A DNA stretch of 64,000 nucleotides, taken from Candidatus Moraniibacteriota bacterium (lineage in GTDB: Bacteria > Patescibacteriota > Minisyncoccia > Moranbacterales > UBA9337). The position numbers and the translations under genes were made by a program. This document shows, in pieces, positions 21,263-29,195 of the stretch. The DNA is taken from positions 9,140 through 73,139 of the forward strand of contig JBBQOS010000001.1 of the NCBI GenBank assembly GCA_038331135.1, given 5' to 3'. Under the pieces are notes generated by a model. That model searched no databases. It saw only the letters and a program-made list of their open reading frames with translations, and was not told the DNA's origin. The first letter of the stretch is position 1. Each line of letters begins with the position of its first letter.

Positions 21263-22315
21263 TTATTTAAAATTTCTCAATCCTGAGTAAACAACGTTTA
21301 CATCACTTGGGTTATAAACAATTCCTGAAATTAGTTTACCTGTGTTTAACTGATAAGTCGACCAATTTCCACCACCATCAACGGATTTGTATATTGCTTG
21401 AGCAGCACTATAAATTATCTCTCTGGAATTTCTTGGATTAATAGCTACTGATCGAATAGGAAATCCTTTGGAAGTGTCCAATACCCCTATCTCCTCGATA
21501 TTTTCTCCGGCATCATAACTTCTAAAAATACCACTATCCGTACCTATAAAAATACCATTCCTGTCACCCTGACTAACTGCTATAGAATAAGCCTTGCCCA
21601 TTTTATTTTTTATATCTGCTAGTTTTCCTTCAATAACTTTAAAATTATCCCCATTAATATCTGATGATAATATGTCATTTTCATGAACCAAAAAATAAAT
21701 ATGACTGTCTAAACCTCCGCCAAAAAGTATTTTCGTAACTGGTCCAGTTGCTTTATAAACACTTCTCCATGTATCTCCGCCATCCACTGTTCTCAAAATA
21801 GCACCTTCGGAAGTGCCTATATATAGAATCATTGGATTTTTTCTATCCATGGCCAAAGAAACAATAACTGTACCATCAGCTGGTTCGGTATAAATTTCCT
21901 GCCAATCCTCTCCATAATTATCAGTTTTATATACCTTTCCTCGTTTTCCATAAACACCTAGCGCTACTACGTTACTTGGCTTGAAATAATTTACCGCCAC
22001 CCCATAAACTTTACTGGCTGGAAACTTTAATTTTTCCCAGCTCTCTGCTCCGTTTTTTGAAACAACCACGCCCTTATCTCTAGTTCCCAGATAAATTCTT
22101 TTATTATCCACTGGGTCAATAGCTATATCAAAAATATCAACTTTGGATATGTTTTGTTTATCGTTAACCTGATTTTTTAAATCCCAGCTTACGCCGCTAT
22201 CTGCTGATTTTAAAATTCCACCAATTTCCCCCGCCGTGCTACTTCCTGTCAATGAACATCCAGAAAGAATGGCAACTCCAAGTAAAAGTACACAAAATTG
22301 ACCATATTTTTTCAT
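21263..22315 (-). CDS. lipoprotein with BNR/Asp-box beta-propeller repeats (Ycf48-like fold)
   Basis: Lipobox LSGC. Repeated S/DxGxTW motifs (DGGDTWRSV, DGGGNWSTY). Confidence 0.6.
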   Translation of the reverse strand: MKKYGQFCVLLLGVAILSGCSLTGSSTAGEIGGILKSADSGVSWDLKNQVNDKQNISKVDIFDIAIDPVDNKRIYLGTRDKGVVVSKNGAESWEKLKFPASKVYGVAVNYFKPSNVVALGVYGKRGKVYKTDNYGEDWQEIYTEPADGTVIVSLAMDRKNPMILYIGTSEGAILRTVDGGDTWRSVYKATGPVTKILFGGGLDSHIYFLVHENDILSSDINGDNFKVIEGKLADIKNKMGKAYSIAVSQGDRNGIFIGTDSGIFRSYDAGENIEEIGVLDTSKGFPIRSVAINPRNSREIIYSAAQAIYKSVDGGGNWSTYQLNTGKLISGIVYNPSDVNVVYSGLRNFK

Positions 22316-22780: not shown

Positions 22781-22903
22781 TAAATCTCTTTGCGGTCCTG
22801 AAAGCTATTCACTTTCAGCTCTCCCGACTGAGCTTCTCAAATACTAAGATGCTAAATTTCTAAAACAAAAAACACTAACCAAAAGATTAGTGAATTTAAT
22901 ATG

Positions 22904-22976
22904 TGCGCCGTGGGGGATTCGAACCCTCGACCATCAGCTTAAAAGGCTGTTGCTCTACCAACTGAGCTAACGGCGC
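22904..22976 (-). tRNA. tRNA-Lys (anticodon UUU)
   Basis: Reverse complement folds as a cloverleaf: acceptor GCGCCGT/ACGGCGC, anticodon loop CUUUUAA, T-loop GGTTCGAATCC. No encoded CCA. Confidence 0.85.
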
Positions 22977-23262
22977 ATATTGCATATTTAGAAAAATAAA
23001 ATATTCCCCAATGCTGGGTTTATTTATTTCTTATACTTTATATTAATTTTAAGCAAATATAGAATACTATAAAATTATAGCTTTTTCAAAATAAAAGTCA
23101 ACCCCGCCAGAGATGAAAATGCTTAAATTAGTTACTTCCCTCTCGAACTGAGGCTAAATCAGCTTTTAAACACACGAACTATTGATTTTAATTAACCAGC
23201 ATGCTATTATTTTTAGGTATTGTTTTTGATTATGTTTTCAGAAAAGCAGAAGTCTATAGAGT

Positions 23263-23334
23263 GGCGATCATAGTTCAGTGGTAGAACATCGGTTTGTGGT
23301 ACCGAGTATCAGGGTCCGATTCCCTGTGATCGCC
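23263..23334 (+). tRNA. tRNA-His (anticodon GUG) with encoded G-1
   Basis: Extra 5' G pairs with discriminator C. Anticodon loop UUGUGGU. T-arm CAGGG/CCCTG. Confidence 0.8.
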
Positions 23335-23428
23335 CCTTTGTAGATTTCAAATAAAAATTATTTAATTAAAAATAAGCTCTTGTGGTGAAATAGATATCAC
23401 ACTTGGCGGAGTTTATCCCGCTTAACGT

Positions 23429-23501
23429 GCGCCCATAGCTCAACGGATAGAGTGTCTGGCTTCGGACCAGAAGGTTCTAGGTTCGAGTCCTAGTGGGCGC
23501 A
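23429..23501 (+). tRNA. tRNA-Arg (anticodon UCG)
   Basis: Acceptor GCGCCCA/TGGGCGC. Anticodon loop CUUCGGA. T-loop GGTTCGAGTCC. Confidence 0.85.
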
Positions 23502-23504
23502 CAT

Positions 23505-23852: not shown

Positions 23853-24845
23853 ATGGAAACAGTTCTATCAGGAATCCGCGCCACGGGGCGCCTACATTTT
23901 GGCAACTTTCTTGGAGCCGTGCAAAACTTCGTGAAGTTCCAACAACCCGGCAATACCTGCCTCTACTTCATCGCCGATTGGCACACACTGACAACACTCG
24001 AAAATCCAGAAGATCTTCGAGGTAATCTGGTTGAGATTGTGAAAGATTACATTGCCGCTGGTCTCGATCCAGAGCAATCAATCATTTACGCTCAGTCAAG
24101 TGTGCCGGAAATCTCCGAACTGTGTCTGTATCTTTCCATGATTCAGCCAATTGGTGAGCTTGAACGCGTTCCGACATTCAAAGATTTGATTCGTAAGAAT
24201 CCAGACAACGTGAATCTTGGGCTCGTGACCTATCCCGTTCTTATGGCGGCAGATATTCTCGGTCCTAAAGCGACACTCGTGCCGGTTGGCGAGGATCAGA
24301 TTCCAAATGTTGAAATGGCGCGCAATCTCGCGAACAGATTCAACAAACGTTTTGGAAACACCTTCGTCATCCCCGAGATGATGGCGCAAATGATAAAAGT
24401 GCCAGGGCTTGACGGCGCAAAGATGGGAAAATCGGAAGCGGACAACGCTATCGACATCAATGTCTCTATTGAAGCAATCCGCGACCAGTATCTGAAGAAG
24501 GGAATTACGGATCCACAACGTCTCCGAGTTACTGATCCCGGCGATCCATACAATCGTTGCCAGTCTGTGTACCCTGTGCACGAACTGGTGACGAATGGCG
24601 AGACAACAACTCGAGAGATTGCCAATCTCTGCATCTCGGCTCAAATCGGCTGTGTTGCCTGTAAGCATCGTTTGGTTGATGGCATCGCAAAGATTCTGGA
24701 ACCCTTTCAGGAAAAACGTGCCGGTCTCGTCAACCAAAATGATTACGTCAAAGATGTACTTCATGAGGGTGGCAAGAAAGCTCGCGTCAGAATCAAGGCA
24801 ACCACCGAGCTTGTTCGAGAGAGAATGGGCATTGTTCTCTATTAA
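23853..24845 (+). CDS. trpS: tryptophan--tRNA ligase (auxiliary, horizontally acquired copy)
   Basis: Class I aaRS: GNFLGA near the N-terminus, GEDQ motif (VPVGEDQIPNVEMARNLANRFN) and KMGKS. Start chosen at METVLSG, 7 nt downstream of AAGGAG. About 48% GC against a ~30% background. Confidence 0.85.
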   Translation: METVLSGIRATGRLHFGNFLGAVQNFVKFQQPGNTCLYFIADWHTLTTLENPEDLRGNLVEIVKDYIAAGLDPEQSIIYAQSSVPEISELCLYLSMIQPIGELERVPTFKDLIRKNPDNVNLGLVTYPVLMAADILGPKATLVPVGEDQIPNVEMARNLANRFNKRFGNTFVIPEMMAQMIKVPGLDGAKMGKSEADNAIDINVSIEAIRDQYLKKGITDPQRLRVTDPGDPYNRCQSVYPVHELVTNGETTTREIANLCISAQIGCVACKHRLVDGIAKILEPFQEKRAGLVNQNDYVKDVLHEGGKKARVRIKATTELVRERMGIVLY

Positions 24846-24862
24846 GATCGAGTATACTTAAT

Positions 24863-24903
24863 GGGCACCTAAAACCGCAAGATTTTAGGTGCCCATTTTT
24901 TAA
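24863..24903 (+). terminator. rho-independent terminator after trpS
   Basis: GGGCACCTAAAA-ccgcaaga-TTTTAGGTGCCC followed by ATTTTTT. Confidence 0.8.
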
Positions 24904-25004
24904 TTTGACAACGATAGCCTAACCATGATAAGCTTACTCATGGTTAGGTTGCTGTACATTTATAGATACTAAAACTCACATCTGGTTCCCTTGATTAATC
25001 AAGG

Positions 25005-25230
25005 GGTTGGGGCTAGATAGTTTCGCGATATACTATCCGAGACAAAGTGGTCTTTGCATAAGTGAAGACTCGGCATTCCTCCGTAATCATAGGAAAAACC
25101 GAAATCGGCTGAAAAGCATAGAGTCGGTATGAGTCCCGAGAGTAATCAAGGGAGAAGTAAGGTGGCACCGCGGAAATCCGCCCTTACGATATGAGCAATT
25201 TTGCTTGTATCGCAAGGGCGGTTTTTCATT
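25005..25230 (+). promoter_or_regulatory. T-box riboswitch leader (tRNA-sensing antiterminator) upstream of dehydrogenase/aminotransferase operon
   Basis: T-box core GAAGUAAGGUGGCACCGCGG (consensus AGGGUGGNACCGCGG) at 25155-25173. Overlapping terminator CCGCCCTTACGATA...TATCGCAAGGGCGG plus TTTTTC ends 26 nt before the ATG. The UGGC bulge implies a discriminator-G tRNA. Confidence 0.65.
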
Positions 25231-25255
25231 TATTAACTCTTAAAACAACATTACT

Positions 25256-26320
25256 ATGAGTAAAGACAATCACTGCTACAAAGAACCAAATATAGAAACA
25301 AATATGTTTGAGGTTCAACAAACAAATAAACATGAGAAATTGATTTTTGGATCAGACGCAAAGTCTGGTCTGAAAATTATTCTCGCCATTCATAATACTA
25401 CCTTAGGGCCAAGTACCGGTGGTACACGAATGGCACTCGTCCCAGAAAAAACAGCTATTGATGAAGCTCTCCGTCTTTCGTATGCAATGACATTTAAATG
25501 CGCGATTATGGATGAACCTTTCGGTGGTTCAAAAGCTGTTATTATTGGTGATCCATCAAAACCAAAATCAAAAGAATTTCTCCACGCTCTTGGTGATTTT
25601 ATTGAATCACTCGGCGGAGCATTCCTGACTGGTGTAGATATGGGTCTTTCGTTAGAGGATGCAAAAATTATCGGCGAGCGGACAAAATATATTTTTAACT
25701 CCCAAGGTTCTTCTGGTGTTACTACTGCCCATGGCGTTTTCAAGGGTATTAAGGAAACGGTCTCTTATGTGTTACATAAAAACAGACTAAAGGATGTACG
25801 TATCGCGGTCCAAGGACTTGGGGCTGTCGGCGGTACGCTTGTTGAACTACTCTTTGCTGAAGGTGCGAGGGTTTTTGTTTCAGATATTGATCCTAAAATG
25901 ACAGAGAAGTATAAAATGATGGCAACCGTTGTTGATAATGATACGATACACAGTATTGATTGTGATGTATTTGCGCCTTGTGCTGTTGGAGAAATTGTCA
26001 ATGATAAAAGCATCAAGGAATTTCGGTGTAAGATTATTGCTGGAGGTGCCAACAATCAATTAAAAGACGAAACCAAACATGCCAAGGAATTACACTCTAT
26101 GGGAATCCTTCATGCTCCAGATTTTGTAATTAATGGTGGTGGTGTATGCCATGGTATGTGTGAAGTAAAAGGAATTGATGTGTCCAACGCTCTTAAAAAG
26201 ACAGATATTATCCCAAGTATATTGCGTACCATTTATGATCGGTCAAAGCAAACAAATACACCACCGCTCCATATAGCCTATGAAATAGCCTATGAAAAAC
26301 TCAAAGTCACCAAAAAATAA
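25256..26320 (+). CDS. Glu/Leu/Phe/Val-family amino acid dehydrogenase (Leu/Phe/Trp dehydrogenase-like)
   Basis: AIHNTTLGPSTGGTRM and FGGSKAVIIGDP motifs. Rossmann GLGAVGG. Confidence 0.8.
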   Translation: MSKDNHCYKEPNIETNMFEVQQTNKHEKLIFGSDAKSGLKIILAIHNTTLGPSTGGTRMALVPEKTAIDEALRLSYAMTFKCAIMDEPFGGSKAVIIGDPSKPKSKEFLHALGDFIESLGGAFLTGVDMGLSLEDAKIIGERTKYIFNSQGSSGVTTAHGVFKGIKETVSYVLHKNRLKDVRIAVQGLGAVGGTLVELLFAEGARVFVSDIDPKMTEKYKMMATVVDNDTIHSIDCDVFAPCAVGEIVNDKSIKEFRCKIIAGGANNQLKDETKHAKELHSMGILHAPDFVINGGGVCHGMCEVKGIDVSNALKKTDIIPSILRTIYDRSKQTNTPPLHIAYEIAYEKLKVTKK

Positions 26321-27425
26321 TCCGATTTCAGATCGAGTTAAAAACATACAATACTCGGCAATCAGAAAAAGTTTTACCACCGGATCGAGTAAAAATATCA
26401 TAAATGCGACCATCGGTCGTCCTGATTTTGATGTGTCGAGTGAAGTCAAAGAACAAGCAAAATTACATATTGATCTCGGACATAATGCATATACGGAAAC
26501 AAAAGGTGTGTTGTCTCTACGACAAGCAATATCCGAATATTTACGAAAAAAGAATATCAGCCGCACCGCAGATGAAATCATTGTTACATCCGGTACAACC
26601 TCTGCAATTTTTATGGTGATATCCTCTCTCGTTAATCCCGATGATGAAGTGATTATTTTTGAACCATATTTCGTAGCGTATCCTGAAGTAATAAAAATGG
26701 TTGGCGGCAAATGCATCATTCTAAAAACGACTTCTGATTTTCACCCAGACATCGCGTTGTTAGAAAAAACTGTTACAAAAAAGACAAAATTGATAATTAT
26801 AAATAGTCCAAACAATCCTACCGGTGCGGTGTACTCGTCAGAAACAATAAATCATATTGTGCGTATTGCGAAGAAAGTAGGTGCGTACATTCTTTCGGAC
26901 GAAATTTATCACGATTTCATATATGGTGAGACTCCATATTATTCGCCCGCCGAAATATATAGCAAAGCGATAATCGTTGACGGTCTTTCAAAATCAAAAG
27001 GTATGTCCGGCTGGAGAATAGGGTTTGTGGCAGGTCCTAAGAATATTATTGACGCTGTTGAAAAATTGCAACAGTTTACTTCAGTGTGTGCTCCTGCCCC
27101 GCTCCAGCATGCTTCAATCTTAGCTTTTACTGACCCGCTCGCCCCAAGTTACCTAGAAAAATACAAACAGAAAAGAAATTTGCTTATTGAAGGAATCAAG
27201 AATGAATATCAGGTAATAATACCCACTGGAGCTTTTTACCTATTTTTAGAAACACCAATTTCTGCTGATAGATTTACAGCTATTTTGGCAAAAAAAGGAC
27301 TAGCCGTGGTACCGGGTAGTGCGTTTGGTAACTACAAAAACTTTATTAGAATTTCGTATGCAGTCAGTGATAAAGAGATTGCACAAATGATTAAAATACT
27401 AAAAGATGCTGTTAAAGAAAAATGA
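26292..27425 (+). CDS. class I/II PLP-dependent aminotransferase (aspartate/aromatic family)
   Basis: SPNNPTG, and SKSKGMSGWRIG with the PLP lysine. Overlaps the dehydrogenase by 29 nt, suggesting an operon. Confidence 0.8.
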   Translation: MKNSKSPKNNPISDRVKNIQYSAIRKSFTTGSSKNIINATIGRPDFDVSSEVKEQAKLHIDLGHNAYTETKGVLSLRQAISEYLRKKNISRTADEIIVTSGTTSAIFMVISSLVNPDDEVIIFEPYFVAYPEVIKMVGGKCIILKTTSDFHPDIALLEKTVTKKTKLIIINSPNNPTGAVYSSETINHIVRIAKKVGAYILSDEIYHDFIYGETPYYSPAEIYSKAIIVDGLSKSKGMSGWRIGFVAGPKNIIDAVEKLQQFTSVCAPAPLQHASILAFTDPLAPSYLEKYKQKRNLLIEGIKNEYQVIIPTGAFYLFLETPISADRFTAILAKKGLAVVPGSAFGNYKNFIRISYAVSDKEIAQMIKILKDAVKEK

Positions 27426-27472: not shown

Positions 27473-28435
27473 TCAAGAGATGATTCCCTTGATTGCATGG
27501 AGCGTATCATGTTGGCTCTGTGGAAGCACATTGCCAATCACGTTGTTGAGAACAGTCACGACACCTTGCAGTTTGACACCGATTGGCTCCACGATGAGCG
27601 CCATACCCTTGGCAAAATACTTGGTGCTGATCAAAAATTTCTCAGGACCAAAAACATTTTGAACAAGTTTATGAATTCCGTTCGGCGTATACCAATGAGA
27701 CAGGAAGAATCCATCTCTACCTTGTGTCTGCCCAACAATCTGAAGGGCCGAGATAGATGGAATTGAGCCACTGGAAACCTGCCTTTGTATTGCCGAAAGA
27801 GAATCCCTCACAGCATTCTTCGTGGTTTCCTCGTCGAAAGTCGAGACCTTGGCTCGAACACCTATCGATAGGAGCTCTCTCTTTACCGAGAATCCTATCC
27901 AATCGAACAAGAATTCTTCGCCGAGAATCCGACCGTTCCGAAGATACTCGTCGTATCCACAGAACGGATATCCGGATTCCGGTTCAGCTTTGAAGAAGCT
28001 CTGACAGTTGTAGACCCCTATAATGAGGCGCCGGGGCTTACTCGCGATCTGCTGGCAAATGACGGAAATCTCACCCGGCAAGAATGTCATCTCCACACCA
28101 TGGTCGATGAACGGCTTGAGGATGGAAGACCTTGCCCGTTCGACTTGTTTAGGTGCAAGGTCGTTGAATACAACCTTGGAAACATACACCCCTATTCGGG
28201 AGAACATGTCCTCAAGAATCACCTTTGGATCACGACAACCGACGGCTCCGCCGAGTGTGATGATATCTTCGCAATCGATTTCTCGATACGCCGCAAGAGT
28301 AGCATCCAATTCCCCTTGGTTATCCGTCGTCATCTCTTCCGTTTCGTACGTACTGGACTGAGCGTCCCAGAAAGCCTTTTGGCCTTCGACTGTGAGGTTT
28401 GGCTTTTGCCAACCATCTTCTCTTGACTTACTCAT
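27473..28435 (-). CDS. hypothetical protein, possible Rossmann/SAM-methyltransferase-like fold
   Basis: IITLGGAVG glycine-rich loop followed by an acidic residue and a VVFNDL-like motif (weak). Overlaps the ybaK-like gene by 8 nt, suggesting an operon. GC about 50%. Confidence 0.45.
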   Translation of the reverse strand: MSKSREDGWQKPNLTVEGQKAFWDAQSSTYETEEMTTDNQGELDATLAAYREIDCEDIITLGGAVGCRDPKVILEDMFSRIGVYVSKVVFNDLAPKQVERARSSILKPFIDHGVEMTFLPGEISVICQQIASKPRRLIIGVYNCQSFFKAEPESGYPFCGYDEYLRNGRILGEEFLFDWIGFSVKRELLSIGVRAKVSTFDEETTKNAVRDSLSAIQRQVSSGSIPSISALQIVGQTQGRDGFFLSHWYTPNGIHKLVQNVFGPEKFLISTKYFAKGMALIVEPIGVKLQGVVTVLNNVIGNVLPQSQHDTLHAIKGIIS

Positions 28436-28934
28436 TTGAATCTCCTTTGGTTTGAGTGTTTGATGTGGTTTGAGAGATATCTGCGATTATTGCCCCAATG
28501 GCTTTCACCATTTCCTCGGGATCAATCACAATTGTTTTCCGCGGATCACTAGATCCGCAGTAAACCGTTCGTTGTCTGAGTAGCACCGCGTCCACAATGA
28601 TATTCTGAAAGAACTCATGAAAGGGACACATATCCCCCGAGTTCAATCCAAGTTTTTTGGTGATTTCTGGTCCAGCGAACTTCACTGTTTTTTCCGATAC
28701 GCCGAGAATAGCAGCGACCTTTGAGAAGTCGACTCTATTCATGCCGGGCAGGATAGTGGCAATCAAACCTATATCCTTTTGAGATAAGAGCAAGGTCTTT
28801 GCCATCAAGTCAGTGGATATATCCAAAGTGCGAACAACATCACCAATCGTAATGACAGGATCATGCTCAATCACTCTCGGCGAATACCCAGAACTCTTAA
28901 GCTTCTGTATGATTTTTTCTGTCTGTGTTTCCAT
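28428..28934 (-). CDS. YbaK/ProX-family aminoacyl-tRNA trans-editing deacylase
   Basis: AKTLLL (conserved Lys), VDFSKVAAILGV and SGDMCPF motifs align with YbaK. Start chosen at METQTEK after AAGGAG. The track ORF extends to 28967 via the shared leader. Confidence 0.7.
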   Translation of the reverse strand: METQTEKIIQKLKSSGYSPRVIEHDPVITIGDVVRTLDISTDLMAKTLLLSQKDIGLIATILPGMNRVDFSKVAAILGVSEKTVKFAGPEITKKLGLNSGDMCPFHEFFQNIIVDAVLLRQRTVYCGSSDPRKTIVIDPEEMVKAIGAIIADISQTTSNTQTKGDSNE

Positions 28935-29195
28935 TATCGTCTCCTTGTTTAGTTTGTGAATGTACAATTTTCGAGAAATCCAAAGGATTTCTTCTGAATC
29001 TACCCTACCATGATTTTGTAGTTAACACAAGCCCCGCCCGCATCCATCCCCCAGACCCCTTTCTGCGGGCGGACAAAATGCAAAAAACAAAAGTCAGTCG
29101 AGGTTTTGCGAATCCTTCCCCCAGAAAATAGTTTCGCAAAACTGAGTCCGAATTGCATTTGCACTCCGCCTGTCCGAATATTTTTTCGGGCAGAC
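28935..29195 (-). repeat. structured leader copy 2 (inverted orientation), upstream of ybaK-like gene
   Basis: Reverse complement matches 23590-23852, including identical CCGCCCGC/GCGGGCGGG and AGAAATCC/GGATTTCT hairpins, SD and ATGGAAAC. Diverges in the GGTGGTGG segment. Confidence 0.7.

Follow-up and report, generated by a model that had tools for sequence, protein, structure and literature searches.

A probable tRNA-Trp-sensing T-box leader of atypical architecture upstream of a dehydrogenase-aminotransferase operon in a Moranbacteria-type CPR bacterium

Locus and regulated operon

The DNA analysed here, a stretch of 64 kb referred to below as the window, carries trpS, a structured leader and two overlapping genes in close succession (Table 1). 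Its taxonomic placement was obtained from the ribosome recycling factor. The two genes encode an enzyme of the Leu/Phe/Trp-dehydrogenase family and a class I aminotransferase, and all related loci preserve this pair together with its overlap. The best NCBIfam match of the dehydrogenase is Trp_DH_ScyB (NF035922) with 301 bits, below the equivalog cutoff of 600, and that of the aminotransferase is likewise below its cutoff. Comparison of the dehydrogenase to the PDB gave 253 bits for LeuDH and 243 bits for TrpDH 5b37, and its relatives are annotated as 'leucine dehydrogenase'. In the pocket, the motif GGGVCHGMCE matches neither LeuDH nor TrpDH, and sequence alone does not allow a substrate to be assigned. 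The preliminary description of this DNA had considered a T-box on such a pair to be unusual, and we agree: no earlier T-box target of the dehydrogenase-aminotransferase type was found in the literature.

The trpS gene possesses its own terminator, no T-box or other known RNA was found upstream of it, and it is not under T-box control. The operon had also been assigned to a foreign island, a view that holds for the neighbouring genes and not for the operon itself. The third-position GC content (GC3) of the dehydrogenase and aminotransferase genes is host-like (0.29 and 0.31, for a background of ~0.27), whereas the neighbours are compositionally odd, with values of 0.50 for trpS, 0.53 for an unknown protein and 0.47 for a YbaK-like gene. 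Fold searches with a neighbouring 320-aa protein returned a generic SAM-methyltransferase fold only.

Table 1. Coordinates of the features in the window, which originates from an uncultured, UBA9337-lineage Moranbacteria-type CPR bacterium with a reduced genome
Feature	Position	Strand	Description
trpS	23853..24897	+	likely ATG 23853 after AAGGAG, ends 24845; own terminator 24860-97
Promoter-like element	24905..24934	+	-35 TTGACA 24905-10, TG 24926-27, -10 TAAGCT 24929-34
T-box leader	24971-25227	+	
P0 basal helix	24974..24976	+	ACU pairs with AGU 25046-48; closes three-way junction
Truncated Stem I	24980..25018	+	lower helix AUCUGGUU 24980-87 / GGCUAGAU 25011-18
Stem I upper hairpin	24988-25005	+	followed by 3' bulge GUUGG 25006-10
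Specifier codon UGG (Trp)	25008..25010	+	in the 5-nt bulge; next base G25011 in an invariant U.G pair
Variable hairpin	25020..25043	+	GUUUCG...CGAGAC; third arm of the junction
Stem II	25049..25070	+	GGUCUU/AAGACU; conserved cap UGC-NNNA-GUG (tandem U.G/G.U pairs)
Stem IIA/B pseudoknot	25071..25094	+	CGG 25071-73/CCG 25081-83; loop UCCU 25077-80 with AGGA 25091-94
Extra conserved domain	25098..25128	+	outer helix ACCGA/UCGGU, internal loop, inner GAAA hairpin
Stem III	25134..25153	+	5' flank AUGAG, 3' flank GAA
Antiterminator	25157..25187	+	A1 GUAAGG 25157-62/CCUUAC 25182-87, bulge UGGCACC 25163-69, A2 25170-81
Intrinsic terminator	25178..25227	+	hairpin CCGCCCUUACGAUA...UAUCGCAAGGGCGG 25178-25221, then UUUUUC 25222-27
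Gene 1, Leu/Phe/Trp-dehydrogenase-family enzyme	25256..26320	+	354 aa; Pfam ELFV_dehydrog
Gene 2, class I aspartate/aromatic-type aminotransferase	26292..27425	+	377 aa; overlaps gene 1

The leader was compared with 20 other distinct CPR/Patescibacteria leaders, all located 5' of the same dehydrogenase-aminotransferase pair, which brings the set to 21 with that of the window. A metagenome scan yielded two close relatives, the remaining 78 loci being distant LeuDH homologues that were taken as negative controls. Transcription probably starts near 24941, as predicted from a promoter-like element whose pattern, TTGAC[AG]-N15-19-TAnnnT, recurs at a conserved distance in 17 of the 21 leaders. A generic promoter scan did not report the element at 24905-24934 because its -10 hexamer matches the consensus at just three of six bases. 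The weakness of this -10 element was counted against the main explanation of the locus.

Identity and structure of the leader

The sequence GAAGUAAGGUGGCACCGCGG is located at 25154-25173. The near-perfect consensus match announced in the preliminary description proved to be an exact T-box core, GGTGGNACCRCG (25161-25172), found a single time in the 64 kb for a chance expectation of 0.17; the same exact-core search returned no second T-box core anywhere in the window. This core is present once per locus in 22 of 24 loci of the dehydrogenase family, always just 5' of the gene, and in none of the 78 negative controls. The whole leader is more stable than shuffled versions (z = -5.35). A leave-out covariance model built from the 5' half alone of five distant relatives, with the T-box core excluded, produced one match in the window (24971-25130, 86.1 bits, E = 3.5e-23), which places the element beyond chance. 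Model R1 matched group 1, one of the two structural groups of leaders, and recovered no group 2 leader; group 2 differs in Stem I and Stem II.

With the Rfam T-box model RF00230 the element attains 27.7 bits (E = 2.3e-4 on 451 nt, E = 0.032 over the whole window), far short of the 93 bits set as gathering score, so that no match is obtained at this threshold. The preliminary description had held that the lack of a significant match to this model would dismiss the element, a rule that would wrongly discard a real one. The motif, antiterminator and terminator claimed for the element have all been found; it is a genuine T-box and very probably a tRNA-sensing switch, yet an atypical one, devoid of the long arm usually required by such switches and equipped with an extra conserved domain. 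The label 'canonical' does not survive the RF00230 score, the missing distal Stem I platform, the extra 31-nt domain and the G-C pair at the base of A2. The interval first proposed, 25005-25255, does enclose the core and terminator, but the true 5' end lies at about 24971-24974, some 35 nt further upstream; Stem I with its specifier (24980-25018), expected among the upstream hairpins, is consequently only partly inside that interval.

The architecture of the leader is set by covariation among the relatives, as read from their aligned sequences. Unguided RNAalifold runs were used for the 48-pair fold, in which 23 pairs are compensatory, as well as for the extra domain and group 2, whereas the counts for Stem I and for the pseudoknot, A1 and A2 refer to helix registers picked with the structure in mind. 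A1 and A2 were further counted on sequence-anchored pieces because the variable length of A2 led MAFFT and RNAalifold to misalign it in the 3' half. In these registers the pseudoknot, A1 and A2 together are 98.2% paired. The 14 pairs of Stem I are paired in 95.8% of cells, against 21-56% when the partners are slid, nine of them display changes on both sides, and the observed score was matched by 0 of 500 shuffles. No long Stem I is present, and with it the distal platform of interdigitated T-loops that contacts the tRNA elbow is missing: upper hairpins range in length from 16 to 40 nt, and no conserved platform, AG-bulge or distal-loop motifs were found across the leaders. Within the specifier region the two groups share a single motif, UGGG, in the context GUUGGG in group 1 and AGAAUGGG in group 2, the latter reading GAA-UGG-G, which is the canonical specifier layout. 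In group 2 the specifier is borne by a terminal 8-nt loop atop a 4-bp stem.

In the window no tandem G.A is present, and Stem I, the variable hairpin and P0 form a three-way junction. P0 was predicted by RNAalifold on distant relatives and covaries across loci (AUC/GAU, ACC/GGU, ACUC/GAGU), with AU to GC and CG to UA exchanges in group 2. The variable hairpin is found with differing sequences in most group 1 leaders; loci L004 and L093 lack it and possess a K-turn-like GA motif instead, as GA motifs are also seen in group 2. A hairpin at 25018-39 (GAUAGU-UUCGCGAUAU-ACUAUC) was considered as an ultrashort Stem I whose specifier would be GAU (Asp). This reading was rejected, the sequence being unconserved and missing in L004 and L093; the region is better drawn as the variable hairpin.

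Downstream of the junction, Rfam aligns the next helix to Stem II of RF00230, and RNAalifold finds nine pairs with covariation in it. In the pseudoknot helix 100% of cells are paired, and both partners have changed at each of the four pairs (UCCU/AGGA, UUCU/AGAA, GCUC/GAGC, GUUC/GAAC). The 31-nt extra domain, inserted between the pseudoknot and Stem III, is not part of the RF00230 consensus, where Rfam treats it as a 32-nt insertion. It was found unguided by RNAalifold, with three pairs changed on both sides in 14, 11 and 10 of the 21 sequences, and the layout outer helix-UGUC-hairpin-RGAG-outer helix is observed in 19 of the 21 leaders, AAUC...AGAG replacing UGUC...GGAG in the window. The flanks of Stem III are similar to the RRRxG-Stem III-AA motif described for T-boxes (PMC7583486).

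Output and specificity of the switch

The bulge UGGCACC, 7 nt between A1 and A2, conforms to the pattern UGGNACC, and A1 covaries at three of its six pairs. The base of A2 is G25170-C25181 in the window and A-U or G.U among other relatives; since a G.U wobble at this position has been described as the steric sensor of aminoacylation (PMC7583486), aminoacylation sensing may differ here. Antiterminator and terminator have positions 25178-87, 10 nt, in common. When the nascent RNA is folded as far as 25200, its minimum-energy structure consists of exactly Stem III and the antiterminator (-18.7 kcal/mol), whereas the full-length RNA folds into the terminator, which upholds the mutually exclusive helices put forward in the preliminary description. 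The terminator followed by UUUUUC was likewise found as claimed, with a spacing of 28 nt, not 26, to the ATG at 25256. The analysis establishes directly that these elements of sequence and structure are present and covary, that the leader matches tRNA-Trp and that the two folds exclude each other.

Two readings of the architecture had to be weighed. The leader could be a canonical class I T-box whose normal long Stem I is hidden among the upstream hairpins. In favour of this, the 3' half conforms to the textbook, and Stem II, IIA/B, Stem III and the antiterminator can all be aligned to RF00230. The Rfam alignment nevertheless squeezes 91 Stem I model positions into 9 nt, 0 of 16 relatives scanned reach the gathering score, and the short variable upper hairpin and the group 2 terminal-loop specifier described above speak against a long arm; a hidden canonical Stem I, hardly credible on these grounds, is refuted by the comparative structure. 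Also very unlikely is a translational, class II-like T-box whose 3' hairpin would hide the ribosome-binding site. A short Stem I is regarded as a translational hallmark (PMC7583486, PMC11297988), and in L010 and L102 the 3' arm of the hairpin contains GAAGGG, a possible Shine-Dalgarno sequence, 3-9 nt before the ATG. The hairpin of the window, however, measures 44 nt with -29.7 kcal/mol, is directly followed by UUUUU, ends 34 nt 5' of the ATG and contains no Shine-Dalgarno-like sequence near the start; a hairpin then a U5-U7 tract is found in 21 of 21 leaders. Given these tracts and the window hairpin free of a Shine-Dalgarno sequence, the output is transcriptional.

The specifier UGG agrees with the tryptophan that the preliminary description had listed among its options from the bulge base, C25166. 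This base can pair with G73 of the tRNA-Trp genes nearby, just as the specifier matches their anticodon CCA. The related loci contain 14 tRNA genes, ten of which encode tRNA-Trp(CCA), and all ten carry the predicted G73 together with an encoded CCA. The bulge reads UGGC in six of the seven loci having both a T-box and tRNA-Trp, and UGGU in the seventh. Further tryptophan genes recur near related loci: trpS adjoins the operon in the window, L001, L002, L013, L099 and L100, a trpB-trpA pair lies upstream of it in L098, and a true trpB directly follows the aminotransferase gene in L097. In L101 the T-box is replaced, before the orthologous operon, by an attenuator encoding a 26-aa Trp-rich leader peptide, MNKINYKILSINWWWFLWRWSRKVRP, with alternative 1:2, 2:3 and 3:4 pairings plus a terminator. 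A leader-peptide mechanism was ruled out in the window, whose leader holds no Trp-containing small ORF. The G73 tRNA-Trp genes, the recurrence of trpS, tRNA-Trp, trpB and trpA, the trpB behind the pair in L097 and the Trp attenuator of L101 argue for specificity towards tryptophan.

A leucine T-box, in which UUG at 25007-09 would be the specifier and a leucine dehydrogenase the target, would accord with the names given to the relatives, with the UUG contained in GUUGGG and with LeuDH as the best PDB match, 10 bits ahead. This reading is highly improbable: group 2 has AAUGGG, in which UGG is conserved and UUG is not, the neighbourhood is enriched in tRNA-Trp, trpS and trpB/trpA rather than in Leu genes, and the leader peptide of L101 is Trp-rich rather than Leu-rich. 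Bacterial tRNA-Leu generally has the discriminator A73, which would mismatch UGGC, and inducing a catabolic LeuDH under leucine starvation makes no regulatory sense. A stronger challenge concerns the purpose of the operon, which could be catabolic or nitrogen-shuffling (deamination for energy), Trp-tRNA control then not serving tryptophan supply. The Leu/Phe/Val/Trp dehydrogenase family is reversible and mostly catabolic, the pocket is unlike that of the sole known TrpDH, and the NCBIfam matches stay under their cutoffs. We nevertheless regard this as unlikely, as two unrelated Trp-starvation switches, the T-box and the Trp leader peptide, precede the same operon, trpB stands directly behind the pair in L097, and T-box targets are normally supply genes (PMC7583486).

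The leader of the window is thus very probably a tRNA-Trp-sensing T-box governing transcription read-through into the dehydrogenase-aminotransferase operon. In the predicted mechanism, the short Stem I of the nascent RNA would show UGG, in its 5-nt bulge, to the anticodon CCA of tRNA-Trp, and Stem II with the IIA/B pseudoknot would be expected to clamp the codon-anticodon helix as in other short-Stem-I T-boxes. The G73-C-C-A end of an uncharged tRNA would then pair with UGGC (25163-66) and stabilise the antiterminator, allowing the polymerase to read through; with a charged or absent tRNA the stronger terminator hairpin with its U-tract would form and transcription would stop. Such tRNA binding and antitermination are predicted from the sequence. 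The operon would supply tryptophan, and the simplest route would be to scavenge indole-3-pyruvate and convert it by reductive amination and/or transamination.

Relation to known systems and significance

The leader shares with class I T-boxes (B. subtilis tyrS, glyQS; RF00230) the UGGNACC bulge between A1 and A2, the competing terminator and read-through output, the specifier followed by a purine, Stem II, the IIA/B pseudoknot and a purine-flanked Stem III. It differs from them by its CPR host, its dehydrogenase/aminotransferase targets, the absence of the Stem I elbow platform, a three-way junction that seems to stand in for the K-turn, the extra 31-nt domain and G-C, not G.U, at the base of A2. 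Similarity to the class II ileS T-boxes of Actinobacteria (M. tuberculosis, N. farcinica; 6UFG, 6UFM per PMC7583486) resides in the short or ultrashort Stem I without elbow contact, the retention of Stem II and IIA/B and, in group 2, a specifier in a terminal loop beside a K-turn. In contrast to these, the leader of the window belongs to another phylum, relies on an intrinsic terminator instead of Shine-Dalgarno sequestration, carries a specifier for Trp rather than Ile, and possesses the extra domain and a variable upper hairpin above the specifier bulge. Attenuation of the E. coli trpL type, present at L101, also senses tRNA-Trp charging and governs a terminator. It is leader-peptide based and mediated by a stalled ribosome, whereas direct tRNA binding is predicted in the window.

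The dehydrogenase has the same fold and catalytic motifs as ScyB/NpTrpDH (5b37) and the LeuDHs (1leh, 8hpe), and shares with TrpDH a Gly at the position of LeuDH Ala113. It departs from these enzymes by an identity of ~40%, the replacement of LeuDH Leu40 by Thr, a pocket motif unique to the CPR family and the sub-cutoff ScyB score.

According to reviews, the elbow-binding Stem I platform is essential for transcriptional T-boxes, which must capture the tRNA rapidly during transcription (PMC7583486). The occurrence of a short Stem I with a terminator in 21 distinct leaders contradicts this textbook rule: either it has exceptions, or the extra domain solves the problem in a new way. Together with the three-way junction, this domain may make up for the lack of a Stem I platform and K-turn. 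T-box regulation in CPR bacteria is probably under-counted, because RF00230 misses this class and the short-Stem-I model of TBDB was searched in Actinobacteria only. It is conceivable, if doubtful, that these leaders represent a third class of T-box architecture, common among CPR/Patescibacteria, which terminates without the platform, the extra domain or junction compensating for it, and regulates a new route to tryptophan from indole-3-pyruvate. If so, the extra domain and, in some members, the three-way junction would provide the tRNA contact or geometry of the missing platform, and a ScyB-like dehydrogenase together with an aminotransferase would constitute an unrecognised tryptophan route in auxotrophic bacteria.

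The presence of two different Trp sensors before orthologous operons is a clear case of regulatory replacement. The switch can moreover serve as a functional label, according to which the CPR 'leucine dehydrogenase' and its aminotransferase respond to tryptophan starvation, a response that points to keto-acid salvage in bacteria thought to be amino-acid dependent.

The leader, its extent and its relatives

The gene at 25256-26320, whose product is a Leu/Phe/Val/Trp-dehydrogenase-family protein, is preceded by GAAGUAAGGUGGCACCGCGG at 25154-25173. The exact T-box core GGTGGNACCRCG occurs once in the whole 64 kb, against 0.17 occurrences expected by chance. The motif, antiterminator and terminator named in the preliminary description were all found in the sequence; the two folds overlap by 10 nt, and the terminator U-tract is separated from the ATG at 25256 by 28 nt rather than the 26 nt first given. 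The minimum free energy (MFE) fold of an RNA ending at 25200 consists exactly of Stem III and the antiterminator (-18.7 kcal/mol), and that of the full-length RNA adopts the terminator, with a hairpin of -29.7 kcal/mol. The stability of the entire leader is well above that of shuffled versions (z = -5.35).

Close members of the dehydrogenase family (at least 60% identity) are almost exclusively metagenomic, the named ones belonging to Candidate Phyla Radiation (CPR) lineages: Vogelbacteria, Berkelbacteria, Falkowbacteria, Saccharibacteria and 'Patescibacteria group'. The window host is Moranbacteria-like, with a ribosome recycling factor, encoded on the contig that contains the window, 83-85% identical to the versions of Candidatus Moranbacteria MAGs. 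The comparison set comprised 24 loci of the family, and 78 loci with distant (~40% identity) LeuDH homologues were used as controls. The exact core is present once each in 22 of the 24 family loci, always 80-95 nt 5' of the dehydrogenase; all 78 control loci lack it. Locus L002 carries a variant core and locus L101 a different leader type. The aminotransferase gene is invariably located 3' of the dehydrogenase gene in the related loci and overlaps it. The 21 distinct leaders were divided into two structural groups, group 1 (n=12, window included) and group 2 (n=9).

The check proposed at the outset, a search with the Rfam T-box model RF00230, formally failed: with permissive filters the match at 25027-25188 scores 27.7 bits, short of the gathering score (93) (E-value 2.3e-4 when searching 451 nt, 0.032 for the whole window), and a scan of the window at the gathering threshold returned three tRNAs only, RF00230 being absent. 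That threshold was reached by 0 of the 16 related loci scanned. The alignment covers Stem II, IIA/B, Stem III and the antiterminator of the window leader, and its score is low because 91 Stem I model positions are reduced to 9 nt and 32 nt are inserted between IIA/B and Stem III. A leave-out covariance model, built from five distant group-1 leaders only and limited to the decoding half with the T-box core excluded, gave a single match in the window at 24971-25130 (86.1 bits, E = 3.5e-23). The same model recovered the remaining group-1 leaders at 74-99 bits and found no significant match in 31 control loci. The element therefore spans about 24971-25227; the interval originally reported, 25005-25255, contains it in part and misses its true start at ~24971, further upstream.

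Architecture and predicted output

Features of the leader and its surroundings (window coordinates)
Feature	Position	Strand	Sequence or remark
Sortilin/BNR-type repeat protein	21263-22315	-	350 aa
tRNA cluster	22903-23502	Lys -; His, Arg +	Lys(UUU), His(GUG), Arg(UCG)
Promoter-like element	24905-10; 24926-34	+	TTGACA; TG-n-TAAGCT
Basal helix P0	24974-76 / 25046-48	+	ACU / AGU; unguided RNAalifold
Stem I lower helix (group 1)	24980-87 / 25011-18	+	AUCUGGUU / GGCUAGAU
Stem I upper hairpin	24988-25005	+	length variable, 16-40 nt in group 1
Stem I 3'-side bulge	25006-10	+	5 nt, R-U-U-G-G in group 1
Variable hairpin	25020-43	+	
Stem II	25049-70	+	
IIA/B pseudoknot	25077-80 with 25091-94	+	CGG/CCG; UCCU with AGGA
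Extra domain	25098-25128	+	between IIA/B and Stem III
Stem III	25134-53	+	followed by discriminator
Antiterminator helix A1	25157-62 / 25182-87	+	GUAAGG / CCUUAC
T-box bulge	25163-69	+	UGGCACC, 7 nt, between A1 and A2
Antiterminator helix A2	25170-81	+	
Terminator	25178-25221	+	CCGCCCUUACGAUA...UAUCGCAAGGGCGG, then UUUUUC
YbaK/ProX-type tRNA-editing domain protein	28428-28967	-	best PDB matches APE2540, YbaK

With helix registers picked knowing the structure, 95.8% of the group-1 Stem I cells are paired vs 21-56% when the partners are slid, and 98.2% vs 41-61% for the pseudoknot, A1 and A2 together. Both-side changes affect 9 of the 14 Stem I pairs, the observed score being reached by 0 of 500 shuffles, and compensatory changes are seen at 4/4 pseudoknot pairs. 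These counts are backed by the leave-out model and by unguided runs; when run unguided on five distant leaders of group 1, RNAalifold yielded the same architecture, with 48 pairs, 23 of them compensatory. The base 3' of the R-U-U-G-G bulge is a G, U.G-paired in every group-1 leader. P0, Stem I and the variable hairpin form a three-way junction, where a K-turn-like motif is found in group 2 and in loci L004 and L093. Group 2 displays a K-turn-like GAUGA/CGAG motif, then a 4-bp stem with the 8-nt loop A-GAA-UGG-G, which is the canonical 'GAA-codon-purine' layout, though in a terminal loop. Nothing similar to the distal Stem I platform was found in either group (21 leaders).

The extra domain was recovered unguided over all 21 leaders, and three adjacent base pairs in the outer helix are maintained through both-side changes in 14, 11 and 10 sequences. 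The layout outer helix-UGUC-inner hairpin-RGAG-outer helix is shared by 19/21 leaders, the loop positions reading AAUC...AGAG in the window; comparison with known motifs gave no match. The roles of this domain and of the three-way junction are hypothetical.

Every leader ends with a hairpin and U5-U7; no Shine-Dalgarno-like sequence is located inside or near the window hairpin and no small ORF with Trp in the window leader, from which the switch is predicted to act on transcription. In two group-2 loci, L010 (~800-830) and L102 (~1030-1056), only 3-9 nt separate the terminator 3' arm (GAAGGG) and U-tract from the start codon; this hairpin may possibly mask the ribosome-binding site as well, giving dual transcriptional and translational control. 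Of the 21 leaders, 17 have a promoter-like TTGAC[AG]-N15-19-TAnnnT element at a conserved distance. The putative -10 of the window leader's promoter is spanned by a perfect 11-bp inverted repeat, CCTAACCATGA / TCATGGTTAGG (24918-24948), which could be an operator for an additional protein regulator; similar, diverged repeats are apparently present in close relatives, as judged by eye.

Comparison with known T-boxes

Transcriptional T-boxes generally need a long Stem I with an elbow-binding motif (PMC7583486). An intermediate or ultrashort Stem I is ascribed to the translational T-boxes of Actinobacteria, whose Stem II and pseudoknot make up for the shortening (PMC7583486, PMC11297988). In TBDB, the short-Stem-I model was run within Actinobacteria only and RF00230 elsewhere (PMC7778990). 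A full-text literature search of incomplete coverage retrieved no paper connecting T-boxes to the Candidate Phyla Radiation, to Patescibacteria or to tryptophan dehydrogenase, nor any description of a truncated Stem I in a T-box of the terminator type. The window element has the defining features of T-boxes in general and would be expected to work in a T-box-like manner. It departs from the class I family in three features (RF00230 score, Stem I platform and A2 G.U pair), on which the earlier label 'canonical' has to be given up, and from class II in the output feature.

tRNA identity and the regulated operon

UGGG is the sole specifier-region motif common to both groups (GUUGGG and AGAAUGGG), and UUG (Leu) and AUG (Met) specifiers were therefore excluded. 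The 24 loci contain 14 tRNA genes, ten of them for tRNA-Trp(CCA), with G73 followed by an encoded CCA in 10/10. Among the seven loci with both T-box and tRNA-Trp, the bulge is UGGC in six and UGGU (G.U wobble) in one. The G73 prediction of the preliminary description was thus correct, and the predicted cognate tRNA is tRNA-Trp. The host's tRNA-Trp gene is not inside the window. Weak Rfam 'Plastid-ycf2' matches at 22903-23502, antisense to two tRNA genes, are most likely model artefacts. L100 (2905-3583) and L008 (2035-2670) each carry a pair of tRNA-Trp(CCA) genes with a spacing of ~500 nt; the L100 pair flanks a YbaK-like gene, and the L008 copies differ at nucleotide 1 (G1 vs A1, opposite U72).

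Between 24 and 30 kb of the window, G+C climbs from ~33% to 40-43%; third codon positions narrow the anomaly down further. GC3 is 0.50 in trpS, 0.53 in the gene of a 320-aa unknown protein (methyltransferase-like) and 0.47 in the YbaK-like gene, against a host background of ~0.27; the dehydrogenase (0.29) and aminotransferase (0.31) are host-like. The proposed 'foreign island' thus stands for the first three genes and not for the last two: the T-box operon lacks the look of recent import, whereas its neighbours have it. The locus looks like a mosaic, a higher-GC 'tRNA-Trp module' (23853-24845, 27473-28967) having been acquired around a resident operon. A strong AAGGAG Shine-Dalgarno precedes trpS and none the dehydrogenase. 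In the window, the YbaK-like gene and the 5' end of the methyltransferase-like gene overlap. The YbaK-like gene recurs beside trpS and tRNA-Trp in L098, L099 and L100, so that its product may possibly be a trans-editing factor for tRNA-Trp. The Sortilin/BNR-type repeats are unusual in a small CPR genome.

The operon is adjoined by trpS in the window, L001, L002, L013, L099 and L100; a true trpB (TIGR00263, 580 bits vs a cutoff of 392) is directly 3' of the aminotransferase in L097, and trpB-trpA is upstream of the operon in L098. The dehydrogenase is as far from LeuDH (253 bits) as it is from Nostoc tryptophan dehydrogenase 5b37 (243 bits), and its best NCBIfam match, ScyB tryptophan dehydrogenase, is below cutoff (301 vs 600). 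It shares with TrpDH a Gly at the LeuDH Ala113 position and differs from both enzymes by a distinct pocket motif, GGGVCHGMCE. Its partner aminotransferase falls within the aspartate/aromatic class Ib group. The simplest reading is that both enzymes would form tryptophan from indole-3-pyruvate, these substrates being hypothetical.

L101 (3070-3215) has, in place of the T-box, a leader ORF of 26 codons, MNKINYKILSINWWWFLWRWSRKVRP, with 5 Trp. Alternative pairings (1:2, 2:3 and 3:4) precede the dehydrogenase-aminotransferase operon, as does a terminator; the 3' part can pair with the Trp-codon region or, alternatively, across the downstream terminator. Judged from its sequence, this leader is a classical trp-type leader-peptide attenuator; to our knowledge, no such attenuator has been described earlier in CPR bacteria. 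Two unrelated devices, T-box and attenuator, would both switch on the same operon when charged tRNA-Trp is scarce, which argues that this operon supplies tryptophan.
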